NCBI GenBank assembly: GCA_951406725.2 | Contig: OX597819.1 | Location: 77,500,001-77,564,000, forward strand | Direction: 5' to 3' | Length of the DNA: 64,000 bases | From: Octopus vulgaris | Lineage: Eukaryota | In this document: positions 5,711-61,166 of the stretch, piece by piece | How positions within the stretch are numbered: position 1 is the first letter of the stretch | How the letters are laid out: the number at the start of each line of letters is the position of its first letter | Program-made: the position numbers and the translations under genes | Notes under the pieces: model-generated | Seen by the model: only the letters and a program-made list of their open reading frames with translations | Told to the model about the DNA's origin: nothing | Database searches by the model: none

Positions 5711-8700
5711 TATGCAATGTTAAGTTACACCCCACTATAATGTTAGTGATATACCAAGTGTTACCTTAATCAAAGACTCAGTTAAAACCCATACACATCA
5801 TCATTTAGAATACGCTTTCCATGGTGGCATGGGTTAGACCAGGGTCTATATAAGATTTGGTGCAGTCCATGGATGTGATATAGTAAATCGAGGGTCCCCA
5901 GTAATTTTTCAGGGTCCATGGAAAATATTGTGCTTCAAATTAGTAAAGTTTGCACAATAAATTGGTTATATGTCCAGAATACATAAAATATTTAAGCAAT
6001 TTTTATAGAATCCTAATATTTAATTATGAAAATACAATAGGATTTTTTAAACATTGAATGGTTAAGGGGGTCCACTCAAATAAAATGGGTATCAAGAGTC
6101 CATAGGTAAAAAATGGTTGAGAACACCTTGATTAGACAGTTTGACCAAAACTAGAAAACTTTACCAGGTTCTGGTCTGATTTGGCTTACAGCTGGGTGCC
6201 CTTCCTAACTCCAACCACTTCACAGTGTAGCGGGTGCCTTTTACATGTCACTGGCCATGACTATGATTTCACGTAGCCTGACAAGTTTTCTCAAGCACAG
6301 TGAATGTCTCGATCAGTGATGCAGCACTTGACAATCATGCTTCACCACTTCATCCCATGTCTTCCTGGCTCAACCTCTTCCACAGAGATCAACACTTTGA
6401 ATAGCTTCATGTTTAACAAACATTTACTGTAGTCAAGTATATATATACATTTGTGTATATGTGTTTGTATATACCATTTGAACATCTATATTTCTATACT
6501 TGCATGAATCAGGTAAAATTTGCTGAGTTAGATTCTTCTATGGCCTGATGCCCTTCCTGTTGACAACCCTCACTAGATTCAAAACAAGATAACATTTCCT
6601 CGTATGACATAGGGCGGCAAGCTGGCAGAATCATTAGCACACCACGCAAAATGTTTAGCAGCATTTCATGTTTTTATGTTGTGTTCAAATTCCACAAAAG
6701 CCGACTTAGCCTTTAATCCTTTTGAGGTTGATAAAATAAATACCAGTTGAACACTGGTGTCAATGTGTAATTGATTTATCCCCTACTCCAATATTGCTGG
6801 CCTTGTGTCAAAATCTGAAAGCAATATTTCCCCCATGACCAGATATGTTCCCATGTACAATTGAAAAACAAATGATACAACTTGTATGACTGATATTCAT
6901 TCACAATTATCACACTATATCAAGATGTCCACATGTCCATGATAGCATAAAGTCAGATGGAATTCACTGAAGCAAATCTTCTACAGCAGGATGCTCTTCC
7001 CATCTTCAACCATCACCTGTTTCCCCTTGGTTAGACACATTTTCACAGAAGACTGAAAATAAATGCTGCTACCTATATGCCAGTGATACTAACTACCACC
7101 TGAAGTCAAGACAAGGATAGATAGACAGACACATATATATACTAGAGAGACATAGATAGATATTCCCACACACAAGTTTTCTTCTAGTTTCCATCTACCA
7201 AATCCATTCACGAAGCTTTGGTCAACCAAGGGATAGAGTCGAAGACACTTGCTCATGCCATATAATAGGACCGAACATGAAACCATGTGGTTGGGAAGTG
7301 AGCTTCTCAACTAGTTATGCTAGTGCCTTCTTTCTGTCACTTTTTTCATATATATATATATAAAAATTCCTTCAAATTGATGTAAAGCGTTTTAAAAACA
7401 CCCACCATTTCTGTGAGATTTATTAAAATATTTACTATTACACTAATGAAACCATGACTAAATAGCTAAGTCTTATAAGGTACATCAAGTATGAGGAAAA
7501 TCTTTTAGTATGCAGAACAAAATGTAATTTCGCCAAAGCTAAAAAAAAACACTATCCCTTCTAAAATAATCGCGAATTTAAACTGGTTCAATAAAACTGT
7601 TCCGTTTTTTTAATTATCAACATATGAATGCGATGTTTTTTTAGAACACAATTTAACATGCGGTTCTTAACCAAATTGGCTTCATGATTTGTGTCTCATT
7701 GAATCTAATTACAGGTAATGTATGTGTTGTAATGATTAGCATGTTTGCAGGTGTGTGGCCAGATAGATGTTGAAACAAGCAGCAGCATTCTAAAAGTAAT
7801 TTTTGATTTATTTTAAATAAATATGAAACTTGCGTGTGTCCATTTTTTTTTTTAAACCAATTATTGTGAGGAAAGACTTCAATAATACTATTGTAAAATG
7901 AAACACATTTATTTGAAGCTATCACTGGCTGTTACTATATACAATCTATTAGGCAACAAAAGATCTTTTGTTACCTGAAAGACTGCATATTAGAAATTGG
8001 AGTAGCAATAGAGTGAATTGCCAACTTTGTTGAATAAACGCAATATACTGTTTTTTTTTTGTTTTTTGCTGGTATGTGTATGTATGTATGTATATAGACA
8101 CACATATGTGCAGTTGTGTTTGCAAGTTGCCCTAGTGGTGGTTTCTCCAACGATTTGTAGCACTTTTCTTTAACTCATTTAGATCTTGTTCCAAAGTATT
8201 AGTTTTTTCTTGTACATTATTATTTCATCAGCGCTTTAATGCCCATTTCCCATGCTCGCATGAGTCAGGTGGAATTGAGGTAGATTTTCTCCAACCAGGT
8301 ACCCACCCTGTCACCAACCTTACCCTTTCTCCAAGTAAGGTAATATTTCCCTGTGGCTGTACATGTCTTCACAGAAGACTATAAACAATCAGCATTGCTT
8401 GTATGATAGTGATGCTTGTTTACCATCATGATGTCAAAGACAAATGACACTCACACACACACAAAATGATTCTTTCAGTTTCCATTTACCAAATCCACTC
8501 AAAACGTTTTGGTTAGCACAGGGCTAGCAGAGAAAATACCTGCCTGACACCACATGGTTAGGAAGCAAGTTTCTCAACCACATGGCAATGCTTGTGCCTA
8601 TACAAAATCAAAGATTAAATGGCATTTTAAAATTTCAGTTACCACACTAATGGCAATTCTTCATCACTATTTCATTGTTATCAGTAAATCAATTTGTCTG

Positions 8701-14433: not shown

Positions 14434-16686
14434 TCAGAATCTAGGAGGATTTGGTGGAGGCAAATGACTTCCTTGAAAGCTTTGAGAAGCATTTAAATGA
14501 TTTTCTGTGCCCAGCATAAATCCTGGTAGGCCTTGTAATGGGGCCTGTGTAGGTGGAGGTAACTGCCACATATTACAAGGTGGCATTTGAGTGAAGAAAT
14601 TTGGATACTGGTTTGTATTAAAATTTGGTGGTGGACAATCATTTTTTGAATTATAAAGATAGGATGTCTGGCCTTCTTTCCCAGACACATTTCCAGCAAC
14701 CGTATCAGAGGAATATGTTGGTAGGGAACTAGAACTGCCTCTGTTATTCCACTCAGGTTTTGTATTGTAAGTTGCTTGCCAGTTATTTGAACTTGCCTGC
14801 CCTCCATACTGGCTGGCATTGGTTCCTGTTTTATCAAACATTTTGTCTTGTATGGTTTCCCTATTATTTGGTGGTAAACTGGGTGTGGAAGAACTGGTTG
14901 GAACAGCAGCGGCTTTATCTGGCAACACTTCATTCCTGGCCAAGGTTTCGGTGGCAGATATTGATGGAGGGGGATAGGATATATAATTCCTATCCTGACT
15001 AAACCGAAGATCACAGTCCTTTACAGCTGGAAACGCAATATTATCAGGTGTAGCATCATTGTAAACAGACTTATTACTGACAATTGATGATTGTGATGAT
15101 TGCTGAAGAGTTTGATTAATCTGTTGTGGGGTTTGAGACTGGCAGCTGACTGAAGTAGGGTATTCATATGAAAAGCCAGATGCCTTGTCTTTAGAAAGAG
15201 AATTTACATTTGAAGAATAATCCATTTTTCGCGTTTGGAAAGTGTTACCTCCAACAGACTCGCTTGAGGATTCTCTCTTATAAAAGACAGTATTATAATT
15301 AGAACCCTGTACAGAAGTTCTGATGTCAGTATTTTGTGGTTCATGATATTCTCTGTTCTTATGTGGCTCGACATAGCTTTTAGGAGTTGTAGACGTAAAC
15401 TGGCTGCCATACACACTAGAACCTAATTGTTGAGTCGGCTGATAAGCAGAATCATAGCTTAATGGATTTGAAGAATTAGCAGACGATGTCTGCCATTGTT
15501 GAGGATTACTAATAGAACTGTTATTTGCAAAATTTGATGGTTGTTTGACAGCAGATTTAGAAAGATCTGTGGAGACATTAGTTTGGTTGTTGAGAGAGGA
15601 AGGACCTTGATTACTCAAAGACGAAGAAGGGACTCTATAATCAACATCACAAGTTCCAAAAAGGTCATTGAAGTCATTTCCACTGGATTTGTTTGTTTCT
15701 TTGAAAGGTTCAACAATGTTGCTAGAATTAAAACCAAATGGTTGTTCCTTGTTTACGGAAGCAGTACTTGGTGGCAAATTTGAACCAGATTGGTATGTGA
15801 CACCAGGAGTTTGATTTTCAACAGCAAAAGCAGCCTCCTTGCCTTCAGTGTTTTGTCTGTATGTGTATGGCTTATCATAAGATTGATTGTCTTGCTTTTC
15901 AGCATTAAATGAATGATGATCGTCATGATCATATTTGTTCTGAGACCAATCTCTTTTCTGATACTTGTCACTATCATAAGACCGTTCCCTAGATCGACGC
16001 CTGTCTCGATATTTACTTCTATATGAGTCTCGATACCTATCTCGAGATCTGTCCCTACTGTAGTATCTCTCTCGAGAACTATCCCTGCTACGATACCTAT
16101 CACGAGACCTGTACCTATCATGTCTCTTATCTCTTTCTCTTGACCTATCTCTGCCATGTCTATCTCGAGATCTATTTCTACCTCGATATCTATCCCTAGA
16201 TTTGCTCCTTCTACTGTGATCATCCCAAGACCTGTCTCTGCCTCGAGGCTTATCCCTAGAAGTATTCGCATCCCGTGACTTATCATCTGACTTAGCCCCA
16301 TAATTTGAAGTAACTTTATTTTGGCTATCGTGGCCCTGAGAGCCATAATTCTGAGTTTGAGAGGAACTACTATTAGGATTGTGTTCAGAAATCTGTTGCA
16401 GGTTTCCATCACTGTTGTTATGCTTGTCTCTGACATCAGTTTTCTCACTGCCACAATTGTTCCTATTATTGACATCTTTCTCAATTGGTTCTTGTTTCAC
16501 AACTTGGCTTAAATCTTTCCCACAGTGTGTTCCTGTTGCTAAACCAATGGTGTCTGTCTGACTTTTGTCTACCCCACTTTCGACTTTGACCCCTTCAGGG
16601 TTATTAGCCACCACTGGTTGGACTGAAGCAGCAGTAACAGCTGCTGTAAATACTGCAGCACTGGAATCAGATACTTTCCTCTGACC
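14434..16686 (-). CDS. HNRNPUL1: hnRNP U-like protein, coding exon 11 (terminal, 2253 bp; RS/RD-rich and low-complexity tail)
   Basis: Open for 750 codons; acceptor ttttcag|GGT in phase 0 matching the exon 10 donor; stop TGA at 14434-14436. Confidence 0.85.
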   Translation of the reverse strand, partial: GQRKVSDSSAAVFTAAVTAASVQPVVANNPEGVKVESGVDKSQTDTIGLATGTHCGKDLSQVVKQEPIEKDVNNRNNCGSEKTDVRDKHNNSDGNLQQISEHNPNSSSSQTQNYGSQGHDSQNKVTSNYGAKSDDKSRDANTSRDKPRGRDRSWDDHSRRSKSRDRYRGRNRSRDRHGRDRSRERDKRHDRYRSRDRYRSRDSSRERYYSRDRSRDRYRDSYRSKYRDRRRSRERSYDSDKYQKRDWSQNKYDHDDHHSFNAEKQDNQSYDKPYTYRQNTEGKEAAFAVENQTPGVTYQSGSNLPPSTASVNKEQPFGFNSSNIVEPFKETNKSSGNDFNDLFGTCDVDYRVPSSSLSNQGPSSLNNQTNVSTDLSKSAVKQPSNFANNSSISNPQQWQTSSANSSNPLSYDSAYQPTQQLGSSVYGSQFTSTTPKSYVEPHKNREYHEPQNTDIRTSVQGSNYNTVFYKRESSSESVGGNTFQTRKMDYSSNVNSLSKDKASGFSYEYPTSVSCQSQTPQQINQTLQQSSQSSIVSNKSVYNDATPDNIAFPAVKDCDLRFSQDRNYISYPPPSISATETLARNEVLPDKAAAVPTSSSTPSLPPNNRETIQDKMFDKTGTNASQYGGQASSNNWQATYNTKPEWNNRGSSSSLPTYSSDTVAGNVSGKEGQTSYLYNSKNDCPPPNFNTNQYPNFFTQMPPCNMWQLPPPTQAPLQGLPGFMLGTENHLNASQSFQGSHLPPPNPPRF

Positions 16687-17596
16687 CTGAAAAGTTTAAC
16701 AGTTCTTATCAGGGAGAATTGTATAAAAATAAAAGAAAACAATGTAAAAACAACAACAAACAAAAAATATTAAAAAAATACTGACAGAAGCACCTAAATA
16801 AAGGCTTCGTAATTATCAAACAAAATATTAAAATGGGTTTTCTTTTTGCAAAGAACAAATATAGAATCATGAGGGATTATCTTTTTTAGTTTCCCCCTTA
16901 TCAATCAATCTTTACAACTTTGCAAATAAGAAAACTTACCTTATGATACCACACCCAAACCAAAGATTTATCTAAATACAGTTATAAACATCATCAATGA
17001 TGTGTCACAAACCAAAATGACAAAAATAATCTATGAAATATTGAAGGAGAGTCAATGCATACAAGAAAGATAAACAACTGTTGAAATGCATGCTGACATA
17101 CACACATACAACTAAAATAAATTACATAGCTTAATCAAGCTAAATATCCTATCTAAAGATGAGAGAAATGTTCTCAAATATTTCAAATTCTTAAATATTT
17201 CGCAGCCGATTTTTAAATTCAATAAATACTGAATAAATTCTTTGCAGCATGTAGAATTCAAAACCACTTCAGAAATCATAACAAAAAGGTGTGTCATTAG
17301 CTGCTCCTCTTCAATTTTATGGAAAAAAACAAAGATAATTATCTATCAGCTGCACATCTTTGGCATAAGGCTAAAACTTTGTTTACTTAGTATGAAGTTA
17401 AAGAGAAGGAAATCTACACAGAAATTCATATGCAGCAAAACTTATACGAAACAAGGGAGAAGAGTTCAAGTATTGTTCTGCTTGTGTTAACAAAAGAACA
17501 GAGTATTTTGAAACCAACAAAGAAGGTGCATTATAAACAACTTATAAGGAGGCAAAATAGATAAACAGATCGAGTTTCAAATTTTGGCACAAGGCC

Positions 17597-53500: not shown

Positions 53501-55608
53501 AATTCTATTCAATGTTGTTTCACTGTTAAAAAGTAAAAAGGAAGGAAAGGGGTTTATGGAACACAGGAGTCAATGTAGTAGTTGTATTTTCTATTTATAT
53601 TACCGTATATACTGGCGGATAGGTCCTCCTTTATTCACCAAAAATTTCGATTAAAAATCAGGGGTTCGACCTATCCACTCAACCTCACAGGCATCTGAAG
53701 TAGATGGCTGATGAACAAATGAAAAGAATGTTTAACAGTGATGATGATGAAGAATTTATGAGTTTCAATCCTGATTGAGTTTAATAGCTAAACCTAAATG
53801 AATAAACACTTCTCTTATGTAAAATTTTTTCCCTGTTCTTTTTGTAATTCTTGACGTTTTTCTAGTCAATTTGATACTTTTACTCTTCTGCTTGTTTCAG
53901 TCATTTGATTGTGGCCATGCTGGAGCACCACCTTTTAGTCTAAGAAATCAACCCTTGGACTTACTCTTTGTAAGCTACGGGGATGTAAACACACTAATAT
54001 CGGTTGTCAAGCGATTGTGGCGAGGACAAACAAACACAGAAAACACACACACATAAATACACACACACACACACACACACGTTTTATTTTTATGTTTGTT
54101 TCTGTTGTTTGCTTAGTATTTGGGTTTATTTTTTGATTTGATTGAATCTTGGTTGTTTTTTTTGTTGGTCAGTTATTTTTAGCGTTTTGACAGAAAAAAG
54201 TCATTCTAAAATTGTTTTTTTAAACATTTTCTAATGGAATTCCCCTGTTTCTTTCCCCATTAAAACAACCAGTTGCTTACACAGCTGGCATATACCATTT
54301 CGCTAGCAACAAAGGCAGTACAGGATGACAGTCAGCCAAAATTTTCGGTATGTTGTCTCTCTTCTTTCACCTCTTTGTAGGGTTAATAATCTTAATCTTT
54401 AGTTACAGTTTCTCATTCAAACTACATAATAGGCAGAATTGTCGGATTAAGACTGTAGGATGTTTTGACGGAGATTTGGCTGGTATTTCTACCAGGTCTA
54501 GATACCATGTGTAGTCTTATAAGAGGCGCAGGAGTGGCTGTGTGGTAAGTAGCTTGCTAACCAACCACATGGTTCCGGGTTCAGTCCCACTGCGTGGCAT
54601 CTTGGGCAAGTGTCTTGGGTCGATTTGCTCGACTAAAGGCGGTGCTCCAGCATGGCCGCAGTCAAATGACTGAAACAAGTAAAAAGAGTAAAAAGAGAGA
54701 GAAAAAGAGAGAGTATGGTATAAAACTACAAAACAAAATATATTTACAAGACATTAAAAAACTTTATAAGAGGTGTTGAAAGTGTCGTCCTTCATTTTCA
54801 ACTTTTTTACTGCCGTGTGAGCACTTCCTAGGCTGACTTCCGCAGGATGAAAGAAATTCACTGCGGAGATACTTTTTGAACACCCTGCATGTGGTGGTTA
54901 AATGGGAATCAGGTTAAATTAATGTAGTTCACTCATATATTTGAACTTTTCATGACATAGAAAAGATTAAGAATCAATTTATCACTGACAAAGCAAAAGG
55001 TCATACGGCTAGGGAGAATTTACAGATTCAGTTTCGAATATCAGGTAGAGCCAAGCGAGGTCTCACCCCCACCCCCCGCCATATATTTTAGAGATGTAAT
55101 GACCTGATTTGATCAGAGATCGTGCATTGAATCTAAAACAATTACAGCAGGTTAGATGTATTTAGCCTTTGTAATGGAACTGTGAGTAACCAGGTCACAA
55201 GCAAAAATGTTGACTCCAGCTGGATCTAGTTGGTTTGGACAATAAATGCTTATGTACAGTTAACAATTCTAGTATATTTTTGAACGATTATATAATGTCC
55301 TTAATATGTTAACACACACAAACTCTTTCTCTCTCTCTCTCTCACTTTCACACATACACACACACACATACACATACACACACGTGAGTGTATTTATAAA
55401 CTCACACGCATTCATGCGTGTGTGAGTTTATAAAGTCTAATTTTTCGTGAAAGAACAGGATGAAAAATATCAATGATTTTAGTTTTCTGACTCCGTGAGT
55501 GTAACTCTGTGAGTGTTTTGGGTGCTCTTTTCGTGCCACCGGCACAGGGGCCAGAGACGTCTGGCAGCGGGCATGATCGGTTGGTGCATTTTACGTGCCA
55601 CCGGCACT

Positions 55609-55850
<242 letters not shown>

Positions 55851-56086
55851 AGATAAGAAAATGGAGAAATACATCTAAATCAAATATCAATTACCGAATT
55901 GATTGCATCGCAATCATTAACATTTATGTATTAACTTTGTTGGGTACTTCACTAGCAGTATATTGGATATACATTATCCCATAGAGTGTTGCATTTACAA
56001 CCCCTATCTCAATTTGTATATATATATTGATTCGCTAGCACGCATATTTTTTTCTCTCCTTCTTTCTGTGTTTTTTTCTCTGTGTA

Positions 56087-56124
56087 TCTTTCTGTTGAAG
56101 AGCGTAGGCTCGAAACGTTAAAGA
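56087..56124 (+). ncRNA. Variant minimal type I hammerhead-like motif (Penelope-like terminal repeat)
   Basis: TCTTT-CTGTTGA-A-GAGC gtag GCTC-GAAACGTT-AAAGA: stems I and II pair, stem III palindromic, core differs from CUGANGA; duplicate at 63586-63623. Confidence 0.55.
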
Positions 56125-56252
56125 CTTGTTTCATTTATATTTCCTGAGCGCCATACTAATACAATTGTTTGTTTGTATTCCACCTGCCTTCGTCTTTTGT
56201 TTATTTCCGTAAACCTGCCTTCGTCTTTTGTCTATTTTCATAAAGCTTCCCG

Positions 56253-56802
<550 letters not shown>

Positions 56803-56915
56803 TACACCATCTAGAAAGTTACATATAATAGAAATATCAAAATTAAAATAACAATAATATACCGAAGATTAAGTGAATTGCAAGATGATAATAAAAACGT
56901 ATATATTTGGTAGAA

Positions 56916-57019
56916 TAACGACACGTGTTTCGTGGCTATATTTAAGAAATAGTTATAGTAAAAAAATTAATAGTAGTAGTAAAATCAGTTCGATATAAAT
57001 ATAGCCACTCATCAGGTTA
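56916..57019 (-). ncRNA. Type I hammerhead ribozyme
   Basis: UAAC-CUGAUGA-GUGGCUAUAUUUA[loop]UAAAUAUAGCCAC-GAAACACGUGUC^GUUA: full canonical core, 4-bp stem I, 13-bp stem II, palindromic stem III, GUC cleavage triplet. Confidence 0.85.
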
Positions 57020-57144
57020 AAAATATTTTTGTTATTATAATTTTAATATTTTTATTATATGTAATTTTCTAGATGGTGTAATTTAATTGTTCATTTTGAA
57101 TTGATAAAAGGTGTTTTTCCTTGTTTTGTTTTTGTTTCCGTATT

Positions 57145-57185
<41 letters not shown>

Positions 57186-57200
57186 TATATACATAGATAC

Positions 57201-57246
<46 letters not shown>

Positions 57247-57252
<6 letters not shown>

Positions 57253-57507
57253 CCGGTGGCACGTATAAACGCACAATCCGATCGTGGCCGTTTGCCAGCC
57301 TCATCTGGCACCTGTGCCGGTGGCACATAAAAAACACCCACTTCACTCACGGAGTGGTTGGTGTTAGGAAGGGCATCCAGCTGTAGAAACACTACCAGAT
57401 CAGACTGGACCTGGTGCAGCCTTCTGGCTTCCCGGACCCCAGTTGAACCGTCCAACCCATGCTAGCATGGAAAGCGGACGTTAAACGATGATGATGATGA
57501 TGATGAT
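57247..57507 (+). mobile_element. RTE 3' tail inserted in (TA)n
   Basis: Close match to ~18000-18219; ends in (GAT)n. Confidence 0.85.
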
Positions 57508-57533
57508 ATATACATACATATATACATACATAT

Positions 57534-57599
<66 letters not shown>

Positions 57600-57804
57600 G
57601 TATGTATGTATATATGTATGTATATATCATCATCATCATCATCATCGTTTAACGTCCGCTTTCCATGCTAGCATGGGTTGGACGGTTATACATATTGTAT
57701 AACGTTGACTCCAATTGGATCGAGTTGGTTTGGCCAATAAATGCTCATGTGCAGTGAACAATTCTAGTATATTTTTGAATAATGTCCTTTATATGTAAAC
57801 ACAC

Positions 57805-61166
<3,362 letters not shown>

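Follow-up and report, generated by a model that had tools for sequence, protein, structure and literature searches.

Within a 64,000-nucleotide stretch of Octopus vulgaris DNA (the window), a hammerhead ribozyme motif lies between the arms of an inverted repeat that is itself bordered by runs of (TA)n. What kind of genetic element presents a ribozyme motif in this setting? A sequence-only reading of the locus had proposed a ~350-bp unit that moves as a non-autonomous retroelement of its own. From our analysis of the window and of related copies elsewhere in the genome, we conclude with high confidence that the window copy is instead what remains of a Penelope-like element (PLE) of ~5.9 kb with Hydra-clade protein motifs, namely its 5′-truncated, decaying 3′ end, a pseudo-LTR that includes a type I hammerhead motif, and that the inverted repeat reflects a further piece of that same end in the opposite orientation, likely joined at insertion.

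The hammerhead resides on the minus strand at positions 57019-56916, and a motif reading of the window reveals that its core is intact. The 5′ strand of stem I (UAAC, 57019-57016) is followed by the CUGAUGA core box (57015-57009), a 13-bp helix II (57008-56996 paired with 56944-56932, with a 51-nt loop between the strands), GAA (56931-56929), the palindromic stem III ACACGUGU (56928-56921), C17 (56920) and the 3′ strand of stem I (56919-56916), such that cleavage is predicted to occur between 56920 and 56919. The full core, the 4-bp stem I, the palindromic stem III and the cleavage point are all located where the sequence-only reading had placed them. All components that define type I hammerheads (CUGANGA, GAAA, UH and three helices) are present, with helix III forming merely 2 bp in the folded monomer and 8 bp in the predicted dimer (56921..56928, minus strand). 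A type I descriptor matches this one site in 64 kb and yields 0 matches in 60 locally shuffled windows, and the fold of the window hammerhead has a z value of -2.74.

The large loop that had been described for helix II has a different character. The 13 base pairs and the 51 nucleotides are indeed found, but the apparent loop holds a decayed extension of the helix, whose 9 bp remain intact in sister copies and are disrupted in the window by three substitutions (56988, 56952 and 56951). Predicted folding energies are -24.1 kcal/mol in sister copies with the intact extension versus -16.4 kcal/mol in the window. An Rfam search of 56805-57148 returned no match at E≤10, and a search of 55000-59000 returned only microsatellite-driven miRNA matches below the gathering score; the long helix II is probably the reason that Rfam misses this hammerhead.

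The arms that enclose the motif lie where the sequence-only reading placed them (56801-56860 and 57023-57082) and agree with each other at 55 of 60 positions, but their limits and origins differ from what a simple inverted repeat would suggest. The inverted piece really spans 96 nt (57023..57118, plus strand), of which the right arm represents only the first 60, and it carries the 3′ end of the family, inverted, at the 5′ junction. The remainder of the element (56801..57025, minus strand), as defined by alignments with genome copies, is a 5′-truncated direct copy of the family's 3′ pseudo-LTR that starts 10 nt above the hammerhead core and that has lost ~40-50 nt of the usual 3′ end. The left arm (56801..56860, plus strand) is ordinary pseudo-LTR sequence located 3′ of the ribozyme and is no terminal repeat. 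A view of the junction reveals that the direct and inverted pieces share a 3-nt overlap (57023-57025). Outside the inverted piece are 31 nt specific to the window copy (57119..57149, plus strand), which have a single genome match at ≤1 mismatch, are missing from a local duplicate (L002) and have an unexplained origin. Runs of (TA)n do lie on either side as proposed: a (TA)n-rich microsatellite at 56254..56802 on the 3′ side of the element and a (TA)n microsatellite at 57150..57249 on the 5′ side. A target-site duplication is not discernible inside the microsatellite at the window copy, and no tandem array was seen at the window.

Several other features of the window were noted. The local duplicate belongs to a tandem segmental duplication (55280-60500 versus 62707 to past the window end; L002 and L033) with a period of ~7.45 kb and 92-95% identity, which carries a second copy of the hammerhead element whose junction is rearranged differently. 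A second TA-flanked, high-copy repeat (55850-56254, plus strand) includes a hammerhead-like minimal motif near 56086-56132, with a core that varies where canonical hammerheads have a fixed A. This repeat gave 2383 first-look candidates, with most scored copies matching at 95-97% over the last 240 nt, and is probably the end of another PLE family. Just downstream of the element (57799-60838, plus strand) is a frameshifted, LINE-like endonuclease/RT pair of open reading frames (ORFs) encoding 581 and 460 amino acids, which may be of the Tx1/L1-like family. A 753-amino-acid open frame with an Arg/Ser/Asp-rich repeat region (14434-16695, minus strand) probably represents a large host-gene exon.

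The sequence-only reading called for a genome search for further copies, and this search established that the window sequence belongs to a dispersed family. Among 2.8 Gb in 227 contigs, 2330 first-look candidates were found and 40 were scored, most of which match only query positions 126-350 (window 57025-56801) with 92-95% identity. Moreover, a 23-nt stretch across the core has 267 exact matches in the genome versus 0 for a reversed control. The extent of family sequence above the ribozyme was determined for 30 copies. The shortest has 10 nt and the longest 1510 nt or more, the copies share no start point, and half of them (15) retain less than 170 nt. Such frequent 5′ truncation is a hallmark of PLEs. 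Query positions 33-128 match the opposite strand of other copies at their 3′ end, and therefore the right arm corresponds to the family's 3′ end in inverted orientation. An upstream inverted 3′ end is present at 7 of 30 loci in one set, where it begins between 108 and 867 nt above the core, and at 9 of 25 loci in a second set, with lengths that differ. Some copies thus have an inverted, 5′-truncated piece at their 5′ junction, as is also characteristic of PLEs.

The left arm proves equally uninformative as an element boundary, since family sequence runs on past its position in 28 of 30 copies. The first TA run below the core begins at +220 in the window and +212 in the local duplicate, whereas in the remaining 28 it begins between +257 and +272, and hence the left arm looks terminal only because these two copies have lost ~40-50 nt. 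The 8% difference between the arms fits the 5-8% difference between copies, which indicates that the insertion is not recent. These observations bear on the idea that the locus is a DNA transposon of the MITE type, in which the 60-bp arms would be terminal inverted repeats, with a TA target and a hammerhead inside by chance. The 55 of 60 identical arm positions and the TA flanks are what such an element would exhibit, but in other copies neither arm lies at an end, the right arm is part of 96 nt of inverted family sequence, and the sequence is linked to an RT ORF (see below). We consider this explanation to have almost no chance of being correct, and a transposon with terminal inverted repeats was rejected on the copy survey, where fixed-end repeats were not found in all copies.

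On their 3′ side, copies end either at an internal (TA)n located ~260 nt below the core or ~85 nt further, at the start of the 5′ UTR of the next unit. This tail of ~85 nt follows the internal TA run in 18 of 30 copies, and the same sequence precedes the ORF of a long copy on contig C1, as expected for the optional tail of PLEs and indicative of a tandem pseudo-LTR arrangement. Of nine tail-bearing copies displayed, eight stop at a TA run at a point where the element otherwise continues, which is consistent with the insertion of Hydra elements into (TA)n. Because 18 of 30 copies continue past the TA run located ~260 nt below the core, the TA flanks there may be borne by the element itself.

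Long copies reveal what lies upstream. On the same strand as the hammerhead they carry an ORF with an RT, a CxCX5C linker and a GIY-YIG-type endonuclease, which ends ~2.85 kb upstream. A copy on C13 includes, in one contiguous stretch and in this order, an inverted 3′ end, RT, linker, endonuclease, a 2846-nt AT-rich UTR and the hammerhead region. Its RT matches protein P0001 at 82-88%, its endonuclease matches P0002 at 79%, and its hammerhead region matches the window at 91%. Among six stretches examined, copies on C2, C4 and C7 also join the endonuclease to the hammerhead, a C1 copy (70.76 Mb) has lost its 3′ end, and one stretch contains an inverted hammerhead only. Motifs and BLAST matches indicate that the long copies have the single ORF with RT and C-terminal GIY-YIG that typifies such PLEs. 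The relation to Penelope elements, the PLE pseudo-LTR type of the hammerhead and the Penelope kind of inversion given in the sequence-only reading are borne out, and the GIY-YIG/RT partner that it advised searching for is present in cis.

The window-family ORFs in these long copies are broken by stops and frameshifts, and an intact one was found in none of 18 long copies (some of 12 belong to sister subfamilies). Searches for intact ORFs scored 97 of 12941 and 40 of 1595 candidates, and from this small share of candidates the window family looks dead. In none of the 18 long copies does a hammerhead of the window family itself immediately precede the ORF, such that only the tail links the two ends, although a hammerhead does occupy this position in sister subfamilies (L114 and L116).

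With the coding linkage established, the original proposal of a small retrozyme- or SINE-like ribozyme retroelement, derived from a PLE pseudo-LTR and mobile as its own unit, can be weighed. Half of the 30 copies are short (<170 nt above the ribozyme), retrozymes have been proposed to derive from PLE pseudo-LTRs (bioRxiv 10.64898/2026.07.22.740005), one locus pair (L119/L123) has two hammerhead-bearing ends in direct tandem 411 nt apart, and protein could come in trans from an intact sister family. However, the copies share no 5′ boundary, the arm is absent from 23 of 30 copies, and the outermost 31 nt of the supposed unit are unique in the genome, while its 3′ end is attached to the RT/endonuclease ORF in long copies. 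Furthermore, the window has a single hammerhead motif rather than the head-to-tail array of hammerhead monomers that characterizes retrozymes, and short copies are expected given 5′ truncation and a short search query. Contigs from four sequencing runs presumed to be RNA span most of the sequence in short pieces, which do not inform on transcript ends, strand or level and carry no weight for either reading. We therefore judge a unit with its own termini to be very unlikely, and the reading as a stand-alone retrozyme was rejected on the copy survey. The tandem ends at L119 and L123 (oriented positions 6782/7193 and 6800/7211) have a retrozyme-like size, and their motifs are decayed.

The truncated end of a coding PLE thus remains our preferred interpretation, and the encoded proteins allow its clade to be assessed. 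Hydra-clade elements are C-terminal endonuclease-bearing (EN+) PLEs that are diagnosed by DKT, a CxCX5C linker, CxxC and CxH around conserved E and N residues, and the lack of CCHH (Craig et al., 2021, PMC8557442). DKT is present in place of DKG in P0001, P0003 and the protein of a sister family (family C), the CxCX5C linker precedes the endonuclease in P0002 and P0003, and CxxC and CxH surround the conserved E and N with no CCHH when the sequences are read by eye. The hammerhead, which is canonical and lies on the sense strand near the 3′ end, is likewise typical of Hydra elements. The N-terminal position occupied by RWK in most database relatives is KWK in the window family and in another sister family (family B) and RWR in family C. 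A Pfam search of four proteins (P0001, P0002, P0003 and that of family C) detects neither an RT nor a GIY-YIG family, and the domains are accordingly assigned from motifs and pairwise similarity. Both P0001 and P0002 match P0011 at 36% (E 2e-68 and 2e-27, respectively), and P0011 resembles the printed Hydra-2_Amil by eye; P0003 has 40 database relatives, P0011 among them, of which 39 have 31-42% identity. The window family thus matches the Hydra-clade motifs, with similarity to P0011 serving as a sequence-based proxy. Neptune, Nematis and Naiad were put aside given the linker type, absence of CCHH and domain order.

With regard to the suggestion that the family might be undescribed in this lineage, the clade has been published with an octopus member (PMC8557442); the particular family was not found in the literature searched, and repeat libraries such as Repbase or Dfam may hold it. 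The main text of an octopus repeat annotation (PMC13282606) does not contain the terms ‘Hydra’, ‘hammerhead’ or ‘ribozyme’, and its repeat library may likewise list the family.

Sister families provide a view of less decayed elements. Family B (L092-L101 and L108-L111; e.g. G000:C7:50720500-50730499) has intact Hydra-type ORFs of 821-862 amino acids, and several of its copies are 96-99% identical over 5-7 kb with a pseudo-LTR-ORF-pseudo-LTR layout. Its compact hammerhead occurs twice, ~270 nt ahead of the start codon and ~3.5 kb past the stop. From these sequences, family B is young and probably recently active. Family C (L102-L106) has a 955-amino-acid ORF with ~50% identity to P0001 and a hammerhead with a long helix II and a palindromic stem III. 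The pseudo-LTR hammerhead flanks the ORF on both sides in both families, whose ribozymes were found with a looser scanner after a stricter first scanner had missed them. In sister subfamily A′, only ~0.6 kb separates the endonuclease from the ribozyme, and hence the long 3′ UTR of the window family looks like a later expansion. Upstream of the hammerhead at L014 and L019, the long UTR contains degenerate internal duplications of several hundred nucleotides and internal TA runs; such sequences suggest that the UTR may have grown by duplication.

Comparison of ribozymes within the window family reveals decay rather than conservation. The alignment comprises 55 rows chosen from top hits, and is therefore biased towards intact copies, with one place counted twice. 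The core is intact in 46 rows, and the core together with stems I, II and III is intact in 24, including the window copy. Substitution rates are 0.029 for the core, 0.027-0.032 for the stems and 0.038 for the loop; stem III changes at 0.061, dominated by CpG decay. None of the 55 rows has a compensatory pair change, and this absence of two-sided changes, together with the similar rates in core, stems and loop, indicates neutral decay within the family. An RNA that self-cleaves or forms a hairpin and that has been retained by the host for its function could account for the intact core and stems of the window copy, yet such intactness is common at this divergence and the rates given above are alike in core, stems and loop. 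In addition, the helix II extension has decayed in the window, the local duplicate carries one further stem II change, and stem I is absent from the predicted fold of the whole unit. Retention by the host is therefore highly improbable, and the lone window copy most likely has no function.

Between families the pattern is different. Core columns are invariant in six sequences representing the window family and three sister families, whereas stem I changes on both sides: UAAC/GUUA in the window family and CCAC/GUGG in family B, with AGAC/GUCU in 16 of 20 A′ rows. Stem III occurs as five different self-complementary octamers, namely ACACGUGU in the window family, ACGUACGU in 8 of 19 rows of subfamily A″, ACGUGCGU, which includes two G-U pairs, in 7 of 20 A′ rows, and ACAAUUGU and ACAGCUGU among further sister-family forms. 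Consequently, the compensatory stem changes that the sequence-only reading expected among homologous copies are found in stems I and III across families only, where the sequence comparison supports the type I hammerhead structure. Helix II has 13 + 9 bp in undecayed copies of the window family, 25-37 predicted pairs in A′ and A″, and ~33 in family C. It has only 5 in the young family B, and so great length is not required.

Given these data, a plausible path can be outlined for the origin of the window copy as a truncated PLE end. The GIY-YIG endonuclease of the element would nick an AT-rich or (TA)n site, and target-primed reverse transcription would begin inside the RNA, at the internal TA run downstream of an uncut hammerhead. 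Early arrest of reverse transcription 10 nt above the ribozyme would leave the short direct piece, and the inverted piece might derive from a second cDNA primed off the other strand or from a template switch at the 3-nt overlap. In full-length tandem elements, a two-copy (dimeric) hammerhead formed through the self-complementary stem III could trim multimeric transcripts, and such dimeric cleavage would be relevant only to those tandem units.

The role of hammerheads in PLEs, the origin of the inversions and the targeting of (TA)n are called open questions in the relevant studies (PMC8557442; PMC11167929; PMC4209133). An invariant core combined with five stem III sequences in related Hydra-type families of one genome provides comparative support for the published idea of two-copy cleavage. 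A young family with intact ORFs and nearly identical pseudo-LTR-ORF-pseudo-LTR copies represents a workable test system, and this intact sister family could be used to examine all three questions. A more speculative scenario, which we regard as unlikely, is that a cephalopod branch of the Hydra clade combines very long helices II (22 to 37 pairs of different sequence in four families) with an obligate-dimer stem III, and that tandem pseudo-LTR ends such as the 411-nt dimer at L119 and L123 are cut to unit RNAs that the intact sister family re-mobilizes in trans, thereby forming an intermediate between PLEs and retrozymes.

Metazoan PLE pseudo-LTR hammerheads (Cervera and de la Peña, 2014, PMC4209133) are mostly single motifs in truncated PLEs, sometimes occur as opposite-strand pairs, and cleave poorly as monomers and weakly as dimers. 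The octopus ribozymes share with them the type I topology, a short helix I, a large helix II and a small palindromic helix III that is predicted to act as a dimer. However, helix II is far longer here (22 bp for the window family, 25-37 predicted pairs for two of its sisters), no extra unpaired base is present between positions 9 and 10.1, and stem III has 8 nt rather than the minimal 4-nt form. For an anole PLE, in vitro work has shown that reverse transcription is initiated within the RNA, that the main template is uncut RNA and that cleavage requires the protein (Frangieh et al., 2024, PMC11167929). As in Poseidon PAc of Anolis, the optional tail corresponds to the start of the next unit and copies include an uncut hammerhead. 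PAc belongs to another clade, and the tail here extends ~85 nt beyond the internal (TA)n; the ribozyme here also lies several hundred nucleotides above the start codon, whereas that of PAc overlaps it.

Non-LTR retrozymes (PMC7229834; bioRxiv 10.64898/2026.07.22.740005) resemble the window copy in their type I hammerhead with a weak palindromic helix III and in being AT-rich, non-coding repeats of a few hundred nucleotides. They are head-to-tail arrays of 150-450-nt monomers that give rise to circular RNAs, whereas the window copy represents just one end, truncated, of a coding element. The closest agreement is with the Hydra clade (PMC8557442), whose members Hydra-1_Obim, Hydra-2_Amil and Penelope-13_HM exhibit the same single RT and C-terminal GIY-YIG-type ORF with DKT and CxCX5C, the sense-strand type I hammerhead near the 3′ end and the (TA)n context. 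PLE insertions are described there as 5′-truncated and in part tandem, with a tail and an inverted 5′ copy in many cases, and Penelope-13_HM shares with the window family an inverted, 5′-truncated copy at its 5′ end. Hydra-1_Obim, which is from an octopus, has another hammerhead and a protein that by eye is clearly homologous but divergent, and so represents a different family. The window-family protein further differs from those of the clade in having KWK for RWK and Asn-rich inserts in its ORF. Published Hydra hammerheads have a helix II of 3-7 bp with 3-10-nt loops, versus 13 + 9 bp in the window family, and the elements are ‘generally <3 kb’, which we take as a description of the clade rather than its definition, versus ~5.9 kb with 2.85 kb from stop codon to ribozyme. 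The window copy is accordingly an ordinary relic of a known kind of element, in a family made modestly unusual by a helix II of at least 22 bp and a long 3′ UTR.
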